Below, piece by piece: positions 1,124-63,438 of a stretch of 64,000 nt of DNA. A model generated the notes under the pieces. It worked only from the letters and a program-made list of their open reading frames with translations. It was not told where the DNA came from and made no database searches. Location of the stretch: assembly GCA_017516825.1 (NCBI GenBank), contig JAFXBC010000043.1:4019-68018 (forward strand). The letters are read 5' to 3'. Numbering within the stretch: position 1 is the first letter of the stretch; every line of letters starts with the position of its first letter. The translations under genes and the position numbers were made by a program. Source of the stretch: Clostridia bacterium. Lineage in GTDB: Bacteria; Bacillota; Clostridia; Oscillospirales; CAG-382.

Positions 1124-3043
1124 TTAAGCGTCTCTTCCGATCGTCACTCTCTTGCCGTTCGTCTCCCCGCGGGCAACCTCTTTGCCGCCGTCGGAGACCA
1201 CCCAGCCGCCCTTGCCTACGCGAATGCCGTAGCACCCGCCGCAGATGGGGAGCTTTTCCAGGCTGATCTCACCCAGCTCCTCAAAGTAGACAGGCACAAA
1301 GGAGAAAGCTGTAAGCCCCTCCGGCCGAATACCGAAAAGCCCCTCTGTGACCACCCGTGCAAACAACGCGCTTTCCCCGGAAAGATGGCGCTTCCCGCCC
1401 TCCGGATAAGCCTCCACCGCATAGGGCACGCGATCACACAACAACCGCTTGCGGCAGTACCCCAAGAAGGGCGCCATGATCCGATCCCCCGCACCGGCAA
1501 GGAAGGCCGCCTTCATGCCGTACAGCGTGGAACGATCCCAAATGGTGCTGGAACGGTTTTCCTCGGAGATCTCGCAGGTCAGCATCCCTTCCTCCGTCCA
1601 CAGATAGGAGGAAAGCATGGCGTTCAAAGTGCCCTCCTTTCGTTTTCCCATCTCCATGCACAAGGGCAGGCAGATCCACGCCCGCAACGTGTCGTACCCC
1701 TTGGAGTAGCGGTAGGTCTCAAACCCGTGAAGCTCCGCACCGAAATAGCTGTCAATAGCCTCCGCCAACGCGGCGGCTCTCTTTTGATATTCCTCTGCCG
1801 TGTCAACGTCTCCCAAGGACTCCGCCAACTTGGAGGCAAATACCAACCCGCCGTAGCATAAGCAGGAGGTGGAAAGGTTGGCCTTCCTGTCCGTGGGGAA
1901 GCGCCCCTCCAATTCATCGGAATCGGAACGGATCACACCCTCCGGCAGGGTCTGACGGCGGCAGTACTCCGCACACCACTTGATGGCAGGGTAAAGCTCC
2001 TTGGCAACAGCCTCATCCCCTGCGTAAAGGCAGAACAGGGAAGCCCCGTACAAGTACATGGCCGCGTCCCCGCGGTCTCCCGCACCCTCCCAGATGTCCA
2101 GCCCCTCCGCGATAATGGAGCAGGGAAGCTTGTGGAAGCTGTCGGACATGAAAGCCGTGTAGGAGCGATAAGCGTTCAGGGAAGCCTCCATGGCAGCCTT
2201 GTCTCCCGTCATGGCGAAATGGGGGCCTGCGTACTCCGCCTGGTCGTTGCACCAGGTGGCGGCGTAGTAGGAGCGTCCCCCGGGGCTGTGATACTTCCCG
2301 GTGAGGGTCTCGAAAATGCTTTCCCCGGCGCGGAGCTTGGAAAAACGGAACATTCCGTCCAATACGGGGTTTGCGGTGCGGAGAACCGGGGTGCCGCAAA
2401 GCTCCTCCACCCGCGCAAGACGCGCCAAAAGCTCTTGCCCGCCGTCTACCTCGGGGCAGGGCTGATTGGCGATCCGTGCGGAGTAGTAAACGTAATAGGT
2501 CAGCGTGTCACCCGAGGCAAGCTTGATCACCTCCGGCGCATCGTGGCGGATCTCCGCAAGGTAAACCCCCTTGGTGCCTCTGCCGTATTCGCAGAGATGG
2601 GTAGTCGGCAGGGAAAGGGTAAACTCCCCGTCCTCTATGGCCATCAAGGACACCTGCTCCACACAGCAAAGTGCGTTTTGGGCAGGGTAAAAACGGCGCA
2701 CCACCAGAACGTCTTCGTCGGTATCGCAGGTGATGCAAAGAGTGCCGTCTAGCTCCGCCTGAATGGGGAATTCCTTCACGGGAACGCCGTCCTTCAAAAG
2801 ACGGGGCGCCTGCTCCCTTGCCACGTCAAAATGATAGGTGGCGTGGGTGTGGTTGGGAATGGTACGCAGGGTAGGGAAGTAAAAGCTCTGCTCCAAATGC
2901 AGGGTGCCGTCCTCCTTCACCCCGTAGGAAATGATCTCGTCGGCGTAAAAGCCGCTCATTTCAATGTCGTCGGTGTGAAATTGCCCTTTTTTGATCTCCC
3001 AAACCAAACGCTCCCCGTCGATCCTCCAGATCTGCTCCGTCAT
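1124..3043 (-). CDS. Cytoplasmic glycoside-hydrolase-like protein, probable (alpha/alpha)6-barrel; family not assignable by eye
   Basis: 639-aa ORF without signal peptide and with its own promoter at 3077..3106. The helical C-terminal half carries acidic motifs (GDRGDAAMYLYG, SDSDELEGRF) reminiscent of six-hairpin glycosidases. Confidence 0.45.
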   Translation of the reverse strand: MTEQIWRIDGERLVWEIKKGQFHTDDIEMSGFYADEIISYGVKEDGTLHLEQSFYFPTLRTIPNHTHATYHFDVAREQAPRLLKDGVPVKEFPIQAELDGTLCITCDTDEDVLVVRRFYPAQNALCCVEQVSLMAIEDGEFTLSLPTTHLCEYGRGTKGVYLAEIRHDAPEVIKLASGDTLTYYVYYSARIANQPCPEVDGGQELLARLARVEELCGTPVLRTANPVLDGMFRFSKLRAGESIFETLTGKYHSPGGRSYYAATWCNDQAEYAGPHFAMTGDKAAMEASLNAYRSYTAFMSDSFHKLPCSIIAEGLDIWEGAGDRGDAAMYLYGASLFCLYAGDEAVAKELYPAIKWCAEYCRRQTLPEGVIRSDSDELEGRFPTDRKANLSTSCLCYGGLVFASKLAESLGDVDTAEEYQKRAAALAEAIDSYFGAELHGFETYRYSKGYDTLRAWICLPLCMEMGKRKEGTLNAMLSSYLWTEEGMLTCEISEENRSSTIWDRSTLYGMKAAFLAGAGDRIMAPFLGYCRKRLLCDRVPYAVEAYPEGGKRHLSGESALFARVVTEGLFGIRPEGLTAFSFVPVYFEELGEISLEKLPICGGCYGIRVGKGGWVVSDGGKEVARGETNGKRVTIGRDA

Positions 3044-26738: not shown

Positions 26739-26822
26739 TAGGTTTGCACAAAAAATAAAAAAACAATTGCTTGTGCAATTGCTTGGAATATATAGTTTCT
26801 GCGAAAACCTATTTTATTTCTT

Positions 26823-26895
26823 CCGAAAACGCAAGTTTTCGGCATTGGATTTCTTTGGAGTGCAGAACCTTTCTTTTTCCAAAGAAAGGTTCTGC
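26823..26895 (-). repeat. Bipartite 3'-end hairpin module E7
   Basis: On the minus strand: GCAGAACCTTTCTTT..AAAGAAAGGTTCTGC, linker ACTCCAAAGAAATCCAATG, hairpin CCGAAAACTTGCGTTTTCGG. Begins 13 nt after the stop at 26909. Confidence 0.8.
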
Positions 26896-26908
26896 AAAAC
26901 GTTCTTCC

Positions 26909-36832: not shown

Positions 36833-36905
36833 CCGAAAGCGACAGCTTTCGGCATTTAAGTTCTTTGGGGATTTTTAAGGGGGCTTCTTTCAAGAAAGCC
36901 CCCTT
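36833..36905 (-). repeat. Bipartite 3'-end hairpin module E2
   Basis: On the minus strand: AAGGGGGCTTTCTTGAAAGAAGCCCCCTT, linker AAAAATCCCCAAAGAACTTAAATG, hairpin CCGAAAGCTGTCGCTTTCGG. Begins 22 nt after the ynbB stop. Confidence 0.8.
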
Positions 36906-36927
36906 AAACGTTCTCTCGTATTTTATA

Positions 36928-42692: not shown

Positions 42693-43035
42693 TCCACCAC
42701 TCCAGACAGTCGCGCAAATGCGGGCGACCGCAAAGTGAGGAAAGTCCGGGCTCCGCAGAGCAGGATAACAGATAACGTCTGCCGAAGGTGACTTCAGGGC
42801 CAGTGCAACAGAGAGATACCGCCGCATCTTTTTGCGGTAAGGGTGGAAAGGCGAGGTAAGAGCTCACCGGCGTGCGGGAGACCGTGCGGCCATGTAAACC
42901 CTATCCGGAGCAACACCCACCGAAGCGTTTTAAGCTTGCTCGGCAGCTTCACGGGTGGCAAAGAGGCGTACGGCGACGTACGTCCAAGATAGATGACTGT
43001 CCAATACAGAACCCGGCTTACAGAAGTGATGGAAC
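42693..43035 (+). ncRNA. rnpB: RNase P RNA, bacterial class A
   Basis: Universal P4 strands GAGGAAAGTCCGGGCTCC (42737..42754) and ACAGAACCCGGCTTA (43006..43020). GGTAAGGGTGGAAAGG region. P1 pairing 42693-42701 with 43025-43033. Own promoter and terminator. Confidence 0.9.
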
Positions 43036-43038
43036 AAG

Positions 43039-46554: not shown

Positions 46555-46628
46555 AGAGGAACTTTTTAAAAAAAGTTCCTCTTTAAATCTCCTCAAAAAC
46601 TTCTCGTTCCGAAAACTGTCGTTTTCGG
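46555..46628 (+). repeat. Bipartite 3'-end hairpin module E3
   Basis: AGAGGAACTTTTT..AAAAAGTTCCTCT, linker TTAAATCTCCTCAAAAACTTCTCGTT, hairpin CCGAAAACTGTCGTTTTCGG. Begins 23 nt after the htpG stop. Confidence 0.8.
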
Positions 46629-46729
46629 GGGATGCTCAATATTACTGATTTCGCCCCGCGACAAAGCTTCACCAACGAAGAGGATAAGCAGGGGCGTACG
46701 ATATTTCCCGCTTGCGAAGCAAGCCTCGC

Positions 46730-55173: not shown

Positions 55174-55252
55174 CTTAAGAAACTTTCTTTCGAAAAAGAA
55201 AGTTTCTTAAGAATCTTCAAAGAAACGCATTGCCAAAAGCTGGCGCTTTTGG
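55174..55252 (+). repeat. Bipartite 3'-end hairpin module E6
   Basis: CTTAAGAAACTTTCTTTCGAAAAAGAAAGTTTCTTAAG, linker AATCTTCAAAGAAACGCATTG, hairpin CCAAAAGCTGGCGCTTTTGG. Begins 7 nt after the recO stop. Confidence 0.8.
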
Positions 55253-55369
55253 AAGAAGGAAAAAAATGCGGGTTTCCAAAGGGACCCGGGTCCCTTTGGC
55301 GGGGAGTATAAGGGGCGGCGCCCCTTGGGCGTACTCCATACTTCACCCATCATCAAAAAGGAACAAACC

Positions 55370-57760: not shown

Positions 57761-59560
57761 ATGACCGACGTAAGAGCCGATATTCCGGCAAAGTACAAAT
57801 GGGATCTCTCCGTGATCTACGCAGACATGAAGGCCTTTGATGCCGACTATGACCGCGCCAAGGAAATGATCGCCGCATTCCCTGCCCATAAGGACACCAT
57901 GCTCACAAGTGCAGAGGCGCTGTACAATATGTTCTGCGATATGACCGCTCTGGGCCGTATCCTCCAGAAGCTTTACAGCTACGCCTCCCTTAACTCCGAC
58001 GTGGACACCTCCGATAACAGCTACGTTTCCCTGAAGGGCCGCGTGATGAACCTGGACAACGACCTGTCCGCCGCCGCCTTCTTCGTGGATCCCTACCTTC
58101 TCCGCCTGGACGACGAGACTCTGAACAAATGGTTCGCCGAATTCCCCAAGCTGGAGGAATACCGCCGCTCCATCGAGGCCTCCCTCCGCTACCGTCCCCA
58201 CACCCTGTCCGACGAGTGCGAAAAGCTGATGGCAGACCTGTCCGCAGGCTTCCACACCCACGGCAACATCCGCTCCACCTTCTCCAACGCCGATCTCACC
58301 TTCGGCAAGATCAAAGGGGAAGACGGCAAGCCCGTGACGCTCACCGACAGCACCTACGGCATCTTCCTCCAAAGCACCAACCGCCGCGTCCGTAAGGCGG
58401 CCTTCGACCGTATCTACGCTACCTATTCCTCCTTCGGCAACACCTACGCCGCACTGATGAACTCCTTCGTCAAGGAGCGCACCACCTACGCCAAGGTGAG
58501 AAACTTCCCCGACAGCATCACCGCCTCCGTCTTCCGTGACGAGGTGACCCCCGTTATCTACAACAACCTGTGCGACACCGTTTCCAAGAACCTGAAGCCT
58601 CTCTACGATTACTACGCGCTGAAGAAGAAGGCTCTGGGTGTTCCCAAGCTTCACCTCTACGACATCTACACCCCCCTCATCTCCTCCTGCGACCGTAAGT
58701 ATACCTACGAGGAAGCGGTTGACATCGTCCTGGATGCCATCAAGCTCTTCGGCGAGGAATACCACTCCACCCTGTCCGCAGGCCTTAAGGAAAAGGGCTG
58801 GGCAGACGTTTACCCCAACAAGGGCAAGCGTGGCGGTGCTTACAGCTCCGGCAGCTACGATACCGAGCCCTATATCCTTTTGAACTATACCGACACCCTG
58901 GACGACGTTTCCACCCTGGCACACGAAGCAGGCCACTCCATGCACAGCTACTTCTCCGCCAAGGCCAACACGCCCCAGGAATCCCACTACACCATCTTCG
59001 TGGCAGAGGTCGCCTCCACCGTCAACGAGCTGGTGCTGTTCCGCAAGCTCCTCCGCGAGTCCGACAACCGCGAGGAAAAGCTGTACATTCTCAATCAGCT
59101 CATGGAGACCTACAAGGGCACCCTCTACCGCCAGACCATGTTCGCAGAGTTCGAAAAGGAAATGCACGCCATGGTGGAAGCAGGGGAGACCCTCACCAAG
59201 GATCTGCTGTGCAAGCGCTACTACGAGCTGGTACGCCGTTACTTCGGCAAGGACGTTGTCTGCGATAAGCAGATCGCCTGCGAGTGGATGCGTATTCCTC
59301 ACTTCTACTACAACTTCTACGTTTACAAGTACGCCACCTGTATCTCCGCCGCTTCCGCCATCGTGAAGAAGATCGAGGAGCAGGGTGACGCGTACGTGGA
59401 GAAGTATCTGAACTTCTTAAAGTGCGGCGGATCCCGCAGTCCTCTGGACAGCCTGCTGGTTGCCGATATCGACCTCACCAAGCCCGAGGTCATCGAGGAC
59501 GCCATCGCCGACTTCGCCGCGGCCGTGGAGCAGTTCCGCACCCTCTACGAGGCTGAATAA
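57761..59560 (+). CDS. pepF: Oligoendopeptidase F (M3B)
   Basis: HEAGHSMH zinc motif and family-typical length. Confidence 0.9.
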   Translation: MTDVRADIPAKYKWDLSVIYADMKAFDADYDRAKEMIAAFPAHKDTMLTSAEALYNMFCDMTALGRILQKLYSYASLNSDVDTSDNSYVSLKGRVMNLDNDLSAAAFFVDPYLLRLDDETLNKWFAEFPKLEEYRRSIEASLRYRPHTLSDECEKLMADLSAGFHTHGNIRSTFSNADLTFGKIKGEDGKPVTLTDSTYGIFLQSTNRRVRKAAFDRIYATYSSFGNTYAALMNSFVKERTTYAKVRNFPDSITASVFRDEVTPVIYNNLCDTVSKNLKPLYDYYALKKKALGVPKLHLYDIYTPLISSCDRKYTYEEAVDIVLDAIKLFGEEYHSTLSAGLKEKGWADVYPNKGKRGGAYSSGSYDTEPYILLNYTDTLDDVSTLAHEAGHSMHSYFSAKANTPQESHYTIFVAEVASTVNELVLFRKLLRESDNREEKLYILNQLMETYKGTLYRQTMFAEFEKEMHAMVEAGETLTKDLLCKRYYELVRRYFGKDVVCDKQIACEWMRIPHFYYNFYVYKYATCISAASAIVKKIEEQGDAYVEKYLNFLKCGGSRSPLDSLLVADIDLTKPEVIEDAIADFAAAVEQFRTLYEAE

Positions 59561-59582
59561 GAGTACGAATAGGAACGCGTTT

Positions 59583-59659
59583 AAGGGGAAACTTTCGAAA
59601 AAGTTTCCCCTTAAAAATCCCCTTCAAACCTCAATGCCCGATCCGTTTCACGAATCGGG
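59583..59659 (+). repeat. Bipartite 3'-end hairpin module E4
   Basis: AAGGGGAAACTTTCGAAAAAGTTTCCCCTT, linker AAAAATCCCCTTCAAACCTCAATG, hairpin CCCGATCCGTTTCACGAATCGGG, with a T-run at 59666-70. Begins 22 nt after the pepF stop. Confidence 0.8.
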
Positions 59660-59915
59660 AAGCGGTTTTTGTCACCTCTGCGAAACCCGGTCCGTTGGAC
59701 TCATCTCGTACGGAACGTAGCCACGGCTACTTGTCACCCTGAGCAAGCGCGGAATGGAGCTGTTACGGCTGTGCACAACGGTATATCTCCGCGCGCGTCG
59801 AACTGTGGGGAGTGGCGTTAGCCCGAACCACAGGCAAAAAATGCCTCGCATTTTTTGAGGGTATGGGATGCTTTTCGATACAGCCTTTTTTCGCATATCA
59901 ACTCACACCCCCCGC

Positions 59916-60012
59916 AAAAAAACAGGCTCGGAAACACTCCAAGCCTGTTTTTTCTTCACAATGAGTTTCTTGAAAGGTGCGGAAAACTTCTTTTTCGAAA
60001 GAAGTTTTCTGC
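59916..60012 (-). repeat. Bipartite 3'-end hairpin module E8
   Basis: On the minus strand: GCAGAAAACTTCTTTCGAAAAAGAAGTTTTCCGC, linker ACCTTTCAAGAAACTCATTGTGAAG, hairpin A6-CAGGCT..AGCCTG-T7. Begins 13 nt after the sigma-fusion stop. Confidence 0.8.
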
Positions 60013-60025
60013 AAACCGTACCCCC

Positions 60026-62512
60026 TCACTCCCGATCCTTGTACCCGATTCCGTTGTGAAGCACCAAAAGGCCGTCCTCGTCCTCCACGTAGGTATGCTC
60101 CAACGCACCGTGCCAGATCCCGGAAATATCGATAGGCTCGTACCGACGGAACAGCCCGCCGACCATGGGGAAGTACCCCTCGCCCTGGCCGCGATATGTT
60201 ACCAGCTCCCAAACGGAGGTTTTCGTGCCGCCCCAGAAATCCGTCTCAAATCGTACCACGCCCACACCGGGTGCGAACCAGTACTGCTTCTTCCCGTTGC
60301 CGTAGCCCATGCCGCCTCCGAAGCCCTCGGCGGTGTAAGTGACGTGCCTGCAGTTCTCAAACCGCCCTGCGGCCACCTCCACCGTCTCGTCCTCCAGAAC
60401 GTCCATGACGATCTTCACCTCCGGGTTCCATGCGTCGATCCCCTTTCGTTCCATGTGATAGCCGGGGACCCACTCGTCGGACCACAGCGTCCCCAGATCA
60501 TCCTCCAGCCTGTCGAACAGAAAGGAGTAAAGCAGCTTCCAGCCCTGCTCCCCGCAATCTCCCAGGCACTTCCACTCAAAGGAGTAGGAGCGGTTGTCGT
60601 TAAACTTACGCTTTTCCTTGTCCGCTTCCAGATAGCAGAAGAAGTTCCACACTCCCTGCACGGCAGTTTCGGGGTTGAAATCCGGGTTGGTGAGGAGGAT
60701 CCTCTCCATGACCTCCTTCGCCACGGCGGCGTGAGCCTTTTCACGCTCCGTCACCGCCAAAGACACAGCACGGTCGGTATACTTCCGCACGTCGATGGCC
60801 TTTTCGGTGTACCGCTCGAAATACCCGTGCCGCGCCGCAAGGCAGTTCCCGCGGAAGGTGTCGGAATATCCCACGTCCTCTGCCGCAAGGTACGCCGCCA
60901 CGGTGACGGAATCCTTGGTAGCACCGGTAACCTCCAAAACGCGTTCCACCTTCTGGATCACGTCGGGGTCGCCAACGCAACCGTATTCCCAGCGGTTGCC
61001 GGTGGCAAAGGGGAGATAACCTTCACCGCCCTTGATCTCCGCCTTGGTCAAAAACCATTCGTAGCGATTCTGCCGATTCACCTTCTGCTTGACGATGCCC
61101 ACCCCGGGAGCAAAATAGGTCTCCGCATAGGTCAGCCCGTAGTGTTCTCCCTCCAGCACCGTACAAATGCAGTTCTCAAACTTCCCTGCAGGGGTCTCCA
61201 CCGTGAAGTTTCTCCCCTTGAAGGTCATTTTGATCTTCCCGTCGGAGGCCTCCAGAACCTGGCCGTCCTCCATCTCCGGGTCAAGGATCAAGCTGTCCAC
61301 CTGACTGCAGTTCCAGAACTCCGCGCACTCCATATCGTCCCCGCGGGTGTAGCCGGGCTGGGACCAGAAATACCACTTCCCGCCGATGTTCTTGTAAAGC
61401 TCCCCGGTGGGAGTGCCGTGTACGTTGTGAGGGCTGTTCTTGGCAACCGTCTCAAAAGCAATGGCCGCCTTGGCGTTGGCGTAATACAAGTCGCCTGGCT
61501 TTGAGATCTCCATCACCTTGCGGTAGCATTCCAACGCCTTGTCCACTTCTTTTTGACCGTCCACGTAAGCATAGCCCAGCCAGAACCATTCGTAGGCCAG
61601 TGCCTCCACGAATCCGTTCTTCTCCAAAAAGGGGATCTGTTGCTCCCGCATCTGCTCCTTGCTCAGCTTATCGTTCTCATAAGCCATCACGGACTGCATC
61701 ACGTCCTCGTTGTGGCTGTCCAACGCCGCCTGCTTGATGCGGGCAAAGGTCTCGTCGTTCTTTTCTCCGGGGATCCACCAGTATCCTCGCAACAGCACGT
61801 CCGCCAAAGCGTATTGCTTCTCGGGGGATTCCTCTAAGGATTCCACGTTCTTCAAAACCATGCGGTATTCCGCCTCCACCCCGGAGCGGTCGTTTTTGAG
61901 CCCCCAGAGCTTCAGCTGTTCCACCTGGTACATCACCTTTTCCACAAAGGTCATTTCGTCCATTCGTTCGTTCATCACACCGTATTCCTTTCTAAGTAGC
62001 TTTCTTCCCTCGGAAAGCCGCCACTTCACCGTACCGATGGGGAGCCCCAGCTCCTCTGCGATCTCCTTCACGGAAAGCCCTTCAAAATAATGTAGCTCCA
62101 CCGTCTGTCGGATCTTATCGCTGAGCGTTTCCAAAGCCTCCTGCAGATCCATCTGCTGTTCCGCCCTTTCGTCGCGGAGACCCAAAGCCTCCGTATTCTC
62201 CAAAAGATGCAAGCTGATCTCTCCGCAGGTGTTCCTGTAATGGGTCACCACCGCCTTGGCGCAGTTCTTGGCGATGGCGCAGACCCAAGGGCCGAACTTC
62301 TCCCGCTCCCGCAAGCCGTCCAGCTTCATCCAGGCGGAAACGAAAGCGTCCTGGGAGGCGTCCTCCGCAGAGAATTGGTTCCCCGTCACCTTGTACGCCG
62401 TGCCCTTCACGGCCTTTTCGTAACGGCGTACCAGCTCCTCGTAGGCGTATTGCTCCCCCAAAAGGGACAGTTCCACCAGGGTGCCGTCGGATTTGTCTGT
62501 GTACTTGTTCAT
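60026..62512 (-). CDS. ECF-like sigma-70-family factor fused to a ~640-aa soluble C-terminal region with an internal beta-domain duplication
   Basis: ORF trimmed to ATG 62512, which follows GGAGGA. Region 2 (DASQDAFVSAWMKL) and region 4 (LSVKEIAEELGLPIGTVKWRLSEGRKLL). Duplicated block TVE(T/V)(P/A)AG(K/R)FENC ... (Y/W)FAPGVG(I/V)V. Confidence 0.8.
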   Translation of the reverse strand: MNKYTDKSDGTLVELSLLGEQYAYEELVRRYEKAVKGTAYKVTGNQFSAEDASQDAFVSAWMKLDGLREREKFGPWVCAIAKNCAKAVVTHYRNTCGEISLHLLENTEALGLRDERAEQQMDLQEALETLSDKIRQTVELHYFEGLSVKEIAEELGLPIGTVKWRLSEGRKLLRKEYGVMNERMDEMTFVEKVMYQVEQLKLWGLKNDRSGVEAEYRMVLKNVESLEESPEKQYALADVLLRGYWWIPGEKNDETFARIKQAALDSHNEDVMQSVMAYENDKLSKEQMREQQIPFLEKNGFVEALAYEWFWLGYAYVDGQKEVDKALECYRKVMEISKPGDLYYANAKAAIAFETVAKNSPHNVHGTPTGELYKNIGGKWYFWSQPGYTRGDDMECAEFWNCSQVDSLILDPEMEDGQVLEASDGKIKMTFKGRNFTVETPAGKFENCICTVLEGEHYGLTYAETYFAPGVGIVKQKVNRQNRYEWFLTKAEIKGGEGYLPFATGNRWEYGCVGDPDVIQKVERVLEVTGATKDSVTVAAYLAAEDVGYSDTFRGNCLAARHGYFERYTEKAIDVRKYTDRAVSLAVTEREKAHAAVAKEVMERILLTNPDFNPETAVQGVWNFFCYLEADKEKRKFNDNRSYSFEWKCLGDCGEQGWKLLYSFLFDRLEDDLGTLWSDEWVPGYHMERKGIDAWNPEVKIVMDVLEDETVEVAAGRFENCRHVTYTAEGFGGGMGYGNGKKQYWFAPGVGVVRFETDFWGGTKTSVWELVTYRGQGEGYFPMVGGLFRRYEPIDISGIWHGALEHTYVEDEDGLLVLHNGIGYKDRE

Positions 62513-62623
62513 GGCGTCCTCCGTCTTCTTTTTTGAGTACTCGACCATAAGAGGGAAAAAAGATGTCAAAAGGTTGGGTGTGTAACAAAATTTTATCATA
62601 TTTTTTTAAGAAGCGCAAGATTT

Positions 62624-62698
62624 AAGGGGGAACTTTCGAAAAAGTTCCCCCTTAAGATCCCCTTCAAACCTCAATGCCCGATCCGTTTCACGAATCGG
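62624..62698 (+). repeat. Bipartite hairpin module E5 (no plus-strand gene upstream; lies in the duplicated segment)
   Basis: Copy of E4 with a compensatory A-T to G-C change in the stem. Confidence 0.8.
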
Positions 62699-62954
62699 AA
62701 GCGTCTGCATGTCACCTCTGCGAAACCCGGTTCGTTGGACTCATCTCGCACGGAACGTAGCCACGGCTGCTTGTCACCCTGAGCAAGCGCGGAATGGAGA
62801 TGTTACGGCTGTGCACAACGGTATATCTCCGCGCGCGTCGAACTGTGGGGAGTGGCGTTAGCCCGAACCACAGGCAAAAAATGCCTCGCATTTTTTGAGG
62901 GTATAGGATGCTTTTTGATACAGCCTTTTTTCGCATATCAACTCACACACCCGC

Positions 62955-63051
62955 AAAAAACAGGCTCGGAACACACTCCAAGCCCGTTTTTTTCTTCACA
63001 ATGGGTTTCTTGAGGGGTGTGGGGAACTTCTTTTCCGAAAGAAGTTCCCCA
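62955..63051 (-). repeat. Bipartite 3'-end hairpin module E9
   Basis: Copy of E8 with a compensatory AA/TT to GG/CC change. Begins 33 nt after the spoVAE stop. Confidence 0.8.
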
Positions 63052-63084: not shown

Positions 63085-63438
63085 TCACTTCTGCTTTGAC
63101 TTAAAAACCAAGCTCCAAACCAGCGCAAACAGCAGGGAAGCGGTGATCCCCGCGGAGGCCGCCGCCAGGCCCCCCGTCAAAGCCCCCAACAGCCCGTCCT
63201 TCTCCACGGCGGTGCGTACCCCCTCCGCCAGCAGATGCCCGAACCCCACCAAGGGCACGGAAGCTCCCGCCCCCGCGTATTCCTTCAAGGGCGCAAACAC
63301 ACCGAGAGCGCTTAACAGCACCCCCAGGCACACGTACCCCGTCAGGATCCGCGCAGGGGTCAGCTTGGTCTTGTCAATGAGGATCTGTGCCAAAAGGCAG
63401 AACGTACCGCCCACCCAGAAGGCGTTGAAATACGCCAT
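63085..63438 (-). CDS. spoVAE: Stage V sporulation protein AE
   Basis: ORF 63085..63609 trimmed to MAYFNAFWVGG... (ATG 63438). 117-aa polytopic protein. ATGA overlap with spoVAD. Confidence 0.85.
   Translation of the reverse strand: MAYFNAFWVGGTFCLLAQILIDKTKLTPARILTGYVCLGVLLSALGVFAPLKEYAGAGASVPLVGFGHLLAEGVRTAVEKDGLLGALTGGLAAASAGITASLLFALVWSLVFKSKQK

Follow-up and report, generated by a model that had tools for sequence, protein, structure and literature searches.

In the 64,000-nucleotide stretch of a Clostridia genome analysed here (the window), a direct repeat of about 430 bp brackets a single gene, which encodes an extracytoplasmic function (ECF)-like sigma factor with a long C-terminal extension and lies between pepF and the spoVA genes. 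The explanation that we favour, with a probability of roughly 0.6, is that the repeat is a duplicated spacer of convergent terminators with a core resembling a structured RNA, that its two copies convert each other, and that the sigma gene is ancestral at the locus. Most of this confidence comes from the duplication, the conversion and the structured element; the odds that the element is a transcribed, functional RNA are about even. Position numbers refer to the whole window unless they are preceded by one of the labels L001-L034, which denote related contigs retrieved for comparison.

A blastn comparison of the window with itself matched 59580-60012 to 62621-63046 in direct orientation; the 430 aligned columns had 93.26% identity, with 22 mismatches and 7 gap openings (E = 7e-180). 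The same register was obtained with a repeat finder (3040-nt offset) and with MAFFT, placing the copies at 59580-60012 and 62621-63051, and the similarity is far beyond chance. The direct repeat around one gene described in the initial annotation was thus found by all three methods, and two of its details were also borne out: there are exactly six differences in the centre (59672-59896 versus 62712-62936), and 60026-62512 on the minus strand is the sole real gene that the copies enclose. In the repeat finder the central 251-nt block was 96% identical between the copies. No third full copy of the repeat was found in the 64 kb by blastn, and no further core element either, as a covariance model run with its filters off gave just two matches in the window. 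The region is laid out as follows, with the helices P1 to P4 and the hairpins named as in the text below.

57761-59560, plus strand: PepF, the left flank (Pfam).
59580-59658, plus strand: bipartite terminator module behind pepF, left copy, consisting of palindrome H1 (59580-59614), a linker and hairpin H2 (59637-59658).
59670-59731, plus strand: partial unit of 62 nt, left copy, present only in the long 'type A' allele, with the 5' start TGTCACCTCTGCG.
59732-59885, plus strand: left four-way-junction element, 154 nt, with P1 (59736-40/59858-62), P2 (59747-96), P3 (59803-33), P4 (59835-57) and a conserved tail (59863-85).
59912-59958, both strands: T1, bidirectional intrinsic terminator, left copy, with its stem at 59923-47, an A-run before and a T-run after.
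59979-60012, minus strand: HA, first palindrome of the minus-strand terminator module, left copy (stem 59981-60009), directly behind the sigma stop codon (60026).
60026-62512, minus strand: ECF-like sigma factor with a C-terminal extension of about 640 aa, 828 aa in all, the only gene between the copies.
62513-62620, minus strand: unique upstream region of the sigma gene (promoter and ribosome binding site (RBS)), outside the repeat and conserved in L004.
62621-62698, plus strand: orphan terminator module, right copy, with H1 (62621-55) and H2 (62677-98) and no plus-strand gene in front.
62710-62771, plus strand: partial unit of 62 nt, right copy.
62772-62925, plus strand: right four-way-junction element, with P1 (62776-80/62898-902), P2 (62787-836), P3 (62843-73) and P4 (62875-97).
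62951-63051, minus strand: terminator module behind spoVAE, right copy, with T1 (62961-86), a linker and HA (63021-49); the spoVAE stop codon is at 63085.
63085-63438, minus strand: SpoVAE, the right flank (Pfam).
63438 onward, minus strand: SpoVAD, beyond SpoVAE (Pfam).

The origin of the repeat can be read from the right copy and from the relatives. Upstream of the right plus-strand module the list of open reading frames (ORFs) has only the sigma gene, on the minus strand. Because it carries the pepF terminator module with no plus-strand gene before it, the right copy is a copy of the left spacer. Look-ups of the exact SpoVAE and PepF proteins led to 20 places in many samples. The sigma proteins of L001-L003 are identical to that of the window and represent the same strain, and L005, with a sigma protein 81% identical, has both repeat copies in the same order. 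In L004 (sigma 79% identical) the pepF-sigma spacer is only 151 bp long and contains H1, H2 and HA alone, H2 being shared by the two convergent modules. L004 gave no covariance-model match and has no repeat in front of sigma; there the sigma promoter region is conserved and the upstream neighbour is a gene for an APH-family kinase instead of the repeat. L004 was taken as the outgroup because its pepF nucleotide identities (86.0/85.6%) are below the window-L005 value of 88.8%. In L007, with a sigma protein 57% identical, the order spoVAD-spoVAE-sigma is kept and the spacers are unrelated. Since L007 has sigma beside spoVAE and L004 has sigma beside pepF, both without the repeat, the sigma gene is, judging by these gene orders, ancestral at the locus and neither cargo nor an excisable cassette. 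By the same comparison the core entered, or was retained only in, the clade of the window and L005. The orphan plus-strand module at the right is native in the pepF-side spacer of L004, and so the duplication of a whole spacer proposed in the initial annotation was supported: the entire convergent-terminator spacer of the pepF/sigma gap was reproduced in the gap between sigma and spoVAE. This happened in the common ancestor of the window species and the L005/L009 species, after the L004 lineage had branched off.

The core of the repeat was folded with RNAalifold on the aligned copies, giving a four-way junction in which P1 (ACCCU/AGGGU) closes three arms: P2, a hypervariable arm; P3, a stem of 6-7 bp closing a conserved GAGUGGC-NNNN-GCCCGAA loop; and P4, an A/U-rich stem of 10 bp. 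The junctions GAGCAAG, GCGUCGAA and G are invariant. The same four-way junction is reproduced from the window sequence alone as the single-sequence minimum free energy (MFE) structure, and the left and right elements score 193 and 191 bits, respectively, with the covariance model. Across strains P2 occurs as alleles A, B and C, and P3 as CUGUGG/CCACAG versus CUUCCGC/GCGGAAG, with pairing preserved. Counting all members, the P3 stem was seen as CUGUGG/CCACAG, CUUCCGC/GCGGAAG, CUUCCG/CGGAAG, CUCUUA/UAAGAG and CUUCUGC/GCAGAAG, and P1 changes from ACCCU/AGGGU to AUCCU/AGGAU in the diverged 'beta' copies of another organism, described below together with a third copy found in sister strains. For 14 hand-collected variants, aligned with MAFFT and folded with RNAalifold, 98.6% of the pair cells were standard pairs, seven pairs had changed on both sides, and none of 500 shuffled alignments reached the observed covariation score. 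In a set of 19 distinct sequences that also covers copy 3 and the beta type, standard pairs made up 96.1% of the pair cells and 17 of the 31 pairs had changes on both sides; controls in which this alignment was slid were 35-52% paired, and again none of 500 shuffles reached the observed score. The alignment of 19 sequences (A9) was fitted to the covariance model, and the alignment of 14 variants is independent of that model and gave the same helices. Thus, the compensatory changes expected of structured RNA motifs in general were found, and all four helices covary once the beta copies and copy 3 are included. The unpaired junction nucleotides are strongly conserved across the diverged members. 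In the comparison of 8.7 kb with L005 the most conserved block of 100 nt, at 62856-62955, lies in the right copy and is 97% identical, compared with 64-88% for sigma and at most 94% for pepF.

A search of the whole window against Rfam 15 at the gathering threshold returned only RNase P (class A, bacterial; 42694-43036, plus strand, 247 bits). When the left copy, copy 3 and the L031 member were searched against Rfam 15 at E <= 10, only chance-level matches far below threshold were obtained, mostly to eukaryotic miRNA and snoRNA models and to a few bacterial ones (fstAT, SAM-II, CRISPR-DR, istR, DUF2815). ARAGORN found no tRNA or tmRNA, and a full-text literature search found no published description of such a motif. 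The cores of ribozymes such as the hammerhead and the hairpin were considered and rejected: the P1-P2 junction (J1/2) CUGAGCA is similar to CUGAUGA but lacks the invariant G8, the topology is not the same, and no ribozyme model of Rfam matched. The suggestion that the core is a candidate structured RNA was therefore strengthened, both by the covariation in all four helices and by the lack of an Rfam match. On the alignments and models used here, the core is best described as a compact, covariation-supported four-way junction, one of a small family of clustered elements without a match in Rfam 15 and apparently undescribed.

The two copies of the repeat have not evolved independently. Between the left and right copies of the window 35 columns differ, and the left and right copies of other strains are mosaics of both states. 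The right copy of L015 is left-like in its 5' third, and the left copies of L010, L025, L026 and L030 have right-like 3' ends. In L005 the left and right cores are almost identical and both carry a species-specific P2 allele. Conversely, L021 and L023 carry the long type A allele at the left and the short type B allele at the right. Since the copies are mosaics of each other with exchangeable alleles of two helices, they exchange sequence by gene conversion and inter-strain recombination, which produces the mosaics and makes the P2 and P3 alleles swappable. The left spacer of two independent assemblies, L022 and L024, contains a tandem of two units with the junction GATACAGC|AGGGGCGATTCACGAATCGGG. 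These tandem complete or partial units lie in the pepF-sigma spacer at L022 6801-7611 and L024 6820-7214, the alternative P3 allele being in the first of them. The L022 scaffold contains a gap of 100 N, and the tandem junction is confirmed by the independent contig.

Further members of the family were found outside the window. In the L009 species and in sister strains the covariance model detected a third, diverged copy some 3.9 kb past the right copy, together with partial units preceding it, at the following positions.

L013 1479-1761, minus strand: third element copy with preceding partial units.
L014 1569-1761, minus strand: third element copy with a preceding partial unit.
L009 about 2490-2633, plus strand: third element copy, preceded by at most a fragment.

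There are two partial units before the third copy in L013, one in L014 and at most a fragment in L009. Each begins with GTCACCYCTGAGCAT, continues with the hairpin CCAACCC-UGC-GGGUUGG and then reads ACGCGGGAUCGAGCCGCUGUGUCUGCGU, and the type A allele of the window has the same architecture. In the window the partial unit of 62 nt is bounded by the 7-nt direct repeat TGTCACC, and its start, TGTCACCTCTGCG, is a near-copy of the 5' end of the element. It is missing from the type B copies (L005, L009, L014, L018, L021_R, L023_R); similar tandem partial units of 62 nt precede the third copy in L013 and L014, and one precedes the alpha element in L032 and L034. The window strain retains only a 39-nt remnant of the third copy, outside the window. 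The lineage thus has three co-oriented copies within about 7.5 kb around the spoVA genes, the third being reduced to the remnant in the window strain. In L013 and L009 copy 3 is followed, after about 60 nt, by a co-oriented gene that has an RBS and encodes a membrane protein of 191 aa with just three homologues; the gene is absent in L014.

A scan of species representatives with a 22-mer of the P3 loop, a probe that misses other P3 alleles, matched two contigs of metagenome-assembled genomes (MAGs), one contig per MAG. A P3-loop 20-mer had no match in data of the Joint Genome Institute (JGI). A gapped pattern anchored on P1 led, in the JGI data, to three contigs (L031-L033) of another metagenomic organism, and a fourth contig, L034, was reached through a spurious ORF call that overlies the element. 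In these contigs the copies occur at unrelated loci, adjoining mnmA, a histidine kinase gene and others, as clusters of a partial unit, an alpha copy and a convergent, diverged beta copy; L034 has a further degenerate copy.

L031 640-1320, L032 1400-1837, L033 1-330 and L034 1-760: alpha/beta clusters of the other uncultured organism.

The alpha and beta members face each other 50-100 nt apart, with a conserved GTCGGCA...TGCCGAC hairpin upstream of alpha, and L031 and L034 represent one locus from two samples. Distant blastn searches against phages and plasmids and pattern scans of IMG/VR gave no match that would indicate a phage, plasmid or viral origin. All members found here come from uncultured Clostridia, mostly from animal-gut metagenomes and MAGs.

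The hairpins at both ends of each copy were examined as terminators. The bipartite modules of the initial annotation are real and consist, in each copy, of H1 and H2 on the plus strand and of HA and T1 on the minus strand, and the compensatory changes reported for them were found as described, with the pair A59589/T59606 changed to G62630/C62647 and AA59983-4/TT60007-8 changed to GG/CC. The left plus-strand module folds as two hairpins at -32.5 kcal/mol (z -5.5), and the left HA folds at -16.4 kcal/mol (z -5.2). H1, H2 and HA are stable hairpins without good U-tracts. T1 has the form of an intrinsic terminator, a hairpin containing GC followed by a U-run on either strand. It is more stable on the minus strand in both copies (-24.2 versus -19.2 kcal/mol on the plus strand at the left, -23.1 versus -14.8 kcal/mol at the right), and its variants give G-U pairs on the minus strand only. 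T1 is primarily the terminator of the sigma and spoVA genes. The module type, a palindrome followed by a linker containing ..TCAAAGAAAC..ATTGCC and a second hairpin, recurs in the window behind other genes, near 953, 26820, 36851, 46558 and 55178, and palindromes resembling HA are also present elsewhere in the window. Because the same modules stand at other gene ends, the 'palindromic ends' of the repeat are ordinary terminators of this genome and not transposon ends. These bipartite modules (953-1040, 26820-26900, 36840-36910, 46555-46640 and 55178-55260) lie at the 3' ends of unrelated genes and are built of a perfect palindrome of about 30 nt with a GAAA/TTTC centre, a conserved linker of about 23 nt (..yTCAAAGAAAC..ATTGCC) and the second hairpin.

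If the element is an RNA, it would more probably be transcribed from the plus strand of the window and end at T1, and could then function in cis or as a stable small RNA. Our best guess is a plus-strand structured RNA ending at this bidirectional terminator. The plus strand seems somewhat more likely on account of the lower mean MFE over 19 members (-49.8 versus -45.3 kcal/mol on the minus strand), the terminator-like hairpins downstream, and the position of copy 3 upstream of a co-oriented gene in L013 and L009. Of these hairpins, T1 is supported by folding; that in L031 and L032 is a weak one read by eye, and the only feature flagged there by the terminator scan is P4 of the convergent beta copy. 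In the 3' strand of P1, GAGGG stands 6 nt before an AUG and could be a site like that of Shine-Dalgarno (SD), which P1 would hide. Several observations weigh against this explanation or limit it. Covariation would look the same for an RNA fold and for a fold of single-stranded DNA, and the relatives comprise a narrow clade and one other organism, so that the independent covariation events are modest in number. The G-U cells (8) and A-C cells (7) are balanced and give no strand signal, and T1 is clearly optimised for the minus strand. Promoter scans showed no recognisable sigma-70-type promoter before either window copy or near the elements, where only about 15-75 nt separate H2 from the element, and inspection by eye for promoter boxes of the SigE/K/F/G or ECF type showed nothing consistent. 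Both window copies are directed at the 3' ends of convergent genes and not at a gene that they might control in cis; as a riboswitch or cis-acting leader the element does not fit, because the window copies lead into a terminator and a convergent gene, and a gene follows copy 3 alone, in L013 and L009. The element is also dispensable, being largely deleted as the third copy in the window strain and absent in L004, which fits a selfish repeat as well. Finally, the genome-wide copy number depends on the P3-loop 22-mer, which is blind to copies with other P3 alleles.

The parallels with known systems point in more than one direction. Multicopy families of small RNAs, such as Qrr1-5, LhrC1-5 and PrrF1/2, likewise comprise several paralogues, some of them arranged in tandem, that are intergenic and set between terminators; they combine a conserved scaffold with variable segments, and their copies are homogenised by gene conversion. 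The element described here differs in being larger and more intricately folded than typical base-pairing small RNAs, and in having no recognised promoter, transcript, chaperone or target. Riboswitches are known that gate antisense transcription, for example S-box/ubiG in Clostridium acetobutylicum and B12/AspocR in Listeria. The element shares with riboswitches a multi-helix junction, invariant junction nucleotides, a P1 3' strand that overlaps the SD-like GAGGG and a terminator afterwards, and, as in the antisense-gating cases, the copies of the window run into the 3' ends of convergent genes. Unlike riboswitches, it has no consistent downstream gene, no hint of a ligand, no antiterminator and no Rfam match, and its hypervariable arms are unusual for aptamers. 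The ERIC and BIME families of enterobacteria are imperfect palindromes in tens to hundreds of dispersed copies. They resemble the repeat in being non-coding, strongly structured and located at 3' ends or between convergent genes, in having long and short forms distinguished by internal insertions, and in a conservation across species above that of neutral DNA. The differences are that only two to three clustered copies per genome are documented here and that the fold is a four-way junction with conserved unpaired nucleotides instead of a long hairpin. Paralogous duplicates such as tufA/tufB and the rRNA operons undergo concerted evolution by gene conversion, and the copies within one genome here similarly share lineage-specific variants and mosaic tracts; the difference is that the units here are non-coding spacers in direct orientation with only 3 kb between them and that their homogenisation is incomplete, as seen in the different left and right alleles of L021 and L023. 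Taken together, the element behaves like a multicopy structured non-coding RNA or an ERIC-like intergenic repeat.

Of the explanations that were weighed against the favoured one, the capture of the sigma gene, in which sigma and one repeat copy were inserted between pepF and spoVAE and the duplication was thereby created, is scarcely credible and is already contradicted. The initial annotation had raised it, and in its favour exactly one gene lies between the direct repeats. It did not survive the comparison with L007, where sigma is beside spoVAE without repeats, and with L004, where sigma is beside pepF with the same promoter region and without the core or a second copy. Sigma stands alone between the repeats, where no recombinase was found in the ORF list or by Pfam, and the arrangement does not have the attributes of an attL/attR-type cassette, as there is no recombinase cargo, sigma is ancestral and no empty site was found in the 17 informative contigs (L001, L002, L005, L010-L015, L019, L021-L023, L025, L026, L029 and L030). 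The same contigs bear on the proposal that the direct repeats are a substrate by which RecA deletes or tandemly amplifies the sigma gene, giving heterogeneity of sigma dosage in the population. Direct repeats of 430 bp that are 93% identical offer RecA ample homology, the copies demonstrably recombine, and assemblies often break inside the repeats; many short contigs stop there (L003, L009, L016-L018, L020), as is expected for collapsed repeats. Against this, none of the 17 informative contigs lacks sigma, each having it beside its repeat copy or copies, in consensus assemblies that hide rare variants, and the exchanges observed are conversions and not crossovers, so that the excision or amplification proposed earlier was not confirmed and is quite improbable. 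The ideas of a captured gene and of an excisable sigma cassette can be set aside. At least as improbable is a small protein encoded by the conserved core, either in the 74-aa minus-strand ORF or in the plus-strand micro-ORF after GAGGG. The 74-aa ORF is open in both window copies. The statement of the initial annotation that these two ORFs differ at 4 nt, all non-synonymous, needs correction to 6 nt, four of them non-synonymous and two synonymous, and its conclusion that the core is non-coding stands: the frame is broken in relatives by the type B allele and by changes in the length of T-runs, there is no Pfam match, and a search of 5.8 billion predicted proteins yielded no more than two spurious ORF calls, both lying over other copies of the element. 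On the plus strand an AUG stands 6 nt after GAGGG, that is, after the 3' strand of P1, and in L031-L033 it opens an ORF of 14-16 codons, M(L/S)FD(T/I)AVLRS(V/A)CYQ*, and L031 and L033 differ there in three synonymous codons. In the window lineage this frame is lost beyond 8-15 codons, the two window copies agreeing only in the first 15 residues, and in the beta copies and copy 3 there is a 4-codon ORF only, with no usable SD spacing. The micro-ORF is a lead and not a finding.

The strongest competing explanation sees the element as a selfish, non-autonomous repeat of intergenic regions, of the kind of miniature inverted-repeat transposable elements (MITEs), ERIC or BIME, which we regard as possible and yet clearly less probable than a duplicated spacer with a structured core. 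In this rival the fold would matter at the level of DNA or mobilisation, the convergent terminators would be a harmless landing place, and the pair around sigma would be neighbouring landings or local copies. It would account for the members at unrelated loci in the other organism, often several per locus and in both orientations, for the orthologous L004 spacer being cleanly without the element, for the frequent long and short forms, tandem partial units and deletions, and for the loss of the third copy in the window strain and the lack of a promoter. However, no target-site duplication was seen at the flanks (ACGCG|...|AAACCG at the left, CAAGA|...|ATCGTC at the right) or at the junction between L004 and the window, and there are no element-specific terminal inverted repeats, the H1 and HA ends being generic and present in L004 without the core as well as elsewhere in the window. 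For these reasons, and with only two copies in the window, the MITE-like reading of the initial annotation was not supported in the sense of a classical MITE. The right copy moreover includes the pepF terminator module, which indicates segmental copying and not transposition. As to dispersed copies, there are two in the 64 kb of the window and one contig per matched MAG by a 22-mer that misses other P3 alleles, and the other organism has copies at three or more loci. Collections of phages, plasmids and viruses gave no match, and the conserved unpaired junction nucleotides are more typical of a functional RNA core.

Some observations concern the sigma gene and its surroundings. The Pfam domains of the fusion protein are Sigma70_r2 (residues 27-86), Sigma70_r4_2 (121-173) and DUF3108_like (688-757), with a match also to Sigma70_ECF. 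At least 744 homologues at E <= 1e-10 were found among 8,000 candidates scored; all of the 120 homologues listed cover the full query, and some homologues have TPR matches. A direct repeat of 37 nt within the C-terminal extension (60349-60385 versus 61168-61204, 81% identical, 819 nt apart) suggests an internal domain duplication. A likeness of 25 nt, 23 of them identical in the sense direction, between 59218-59242 (plus strand) in pepF (RYYELVRRYF) and 62420-62444 (minus strand) in sigma (AYEELVRRYE) is probably due to chance or to a common short motif. Beyond the window, three consecutive genes for large serine recombinases (Resolvase, Recombinase and Zn_ribbon domains) and a DUF6870 gene are present in L001 (207-5157) and L011 (1-1083), which are from the same strain; they begin about 7.4 kb past the right end of the window, a few kb beyond the spoVA genes. 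The stretches of L013 and L014 that were retrieved have other genes at the same distance from spoVAD and no such trio. This stretch looks like a strain-specific mobile island near the deleted third copy of the element.

Taken alone, the duplication of a terminator spacer is an ordinary event in genome evolution, and it explains why the sigma gene is bracketed. What adds value is the preserved, covariation-supported junction element, clustered in this lineage by spore-maturation genes and an unusual sigma-factor fusion, which makes the motif a solid candidate for follow-up. More speculatively, and with rather low confidence, the 154-nt junction may be a new functional class of structured RNA in sporulating gut Clostridia, riboswitch-like or protein-binding, with P2 and P3 as exchangeable 'specificity' arms; its clustered copies would then gate antisense or read-through transcription into the spoVA and ECF-like sigma fusion genes, or act in trans, and selection for matched copies would keep them alike. 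If the element is a selfish repeat, it would be a small and well-delimited case of the colonisation of convergent terminator regions. If it is transcribed, it would be a new class of structured RNA in which whole helices are swappable alleles within one species. The locus also provides a natural system for gene conversion between non-coding paralogues 3 kb apart.

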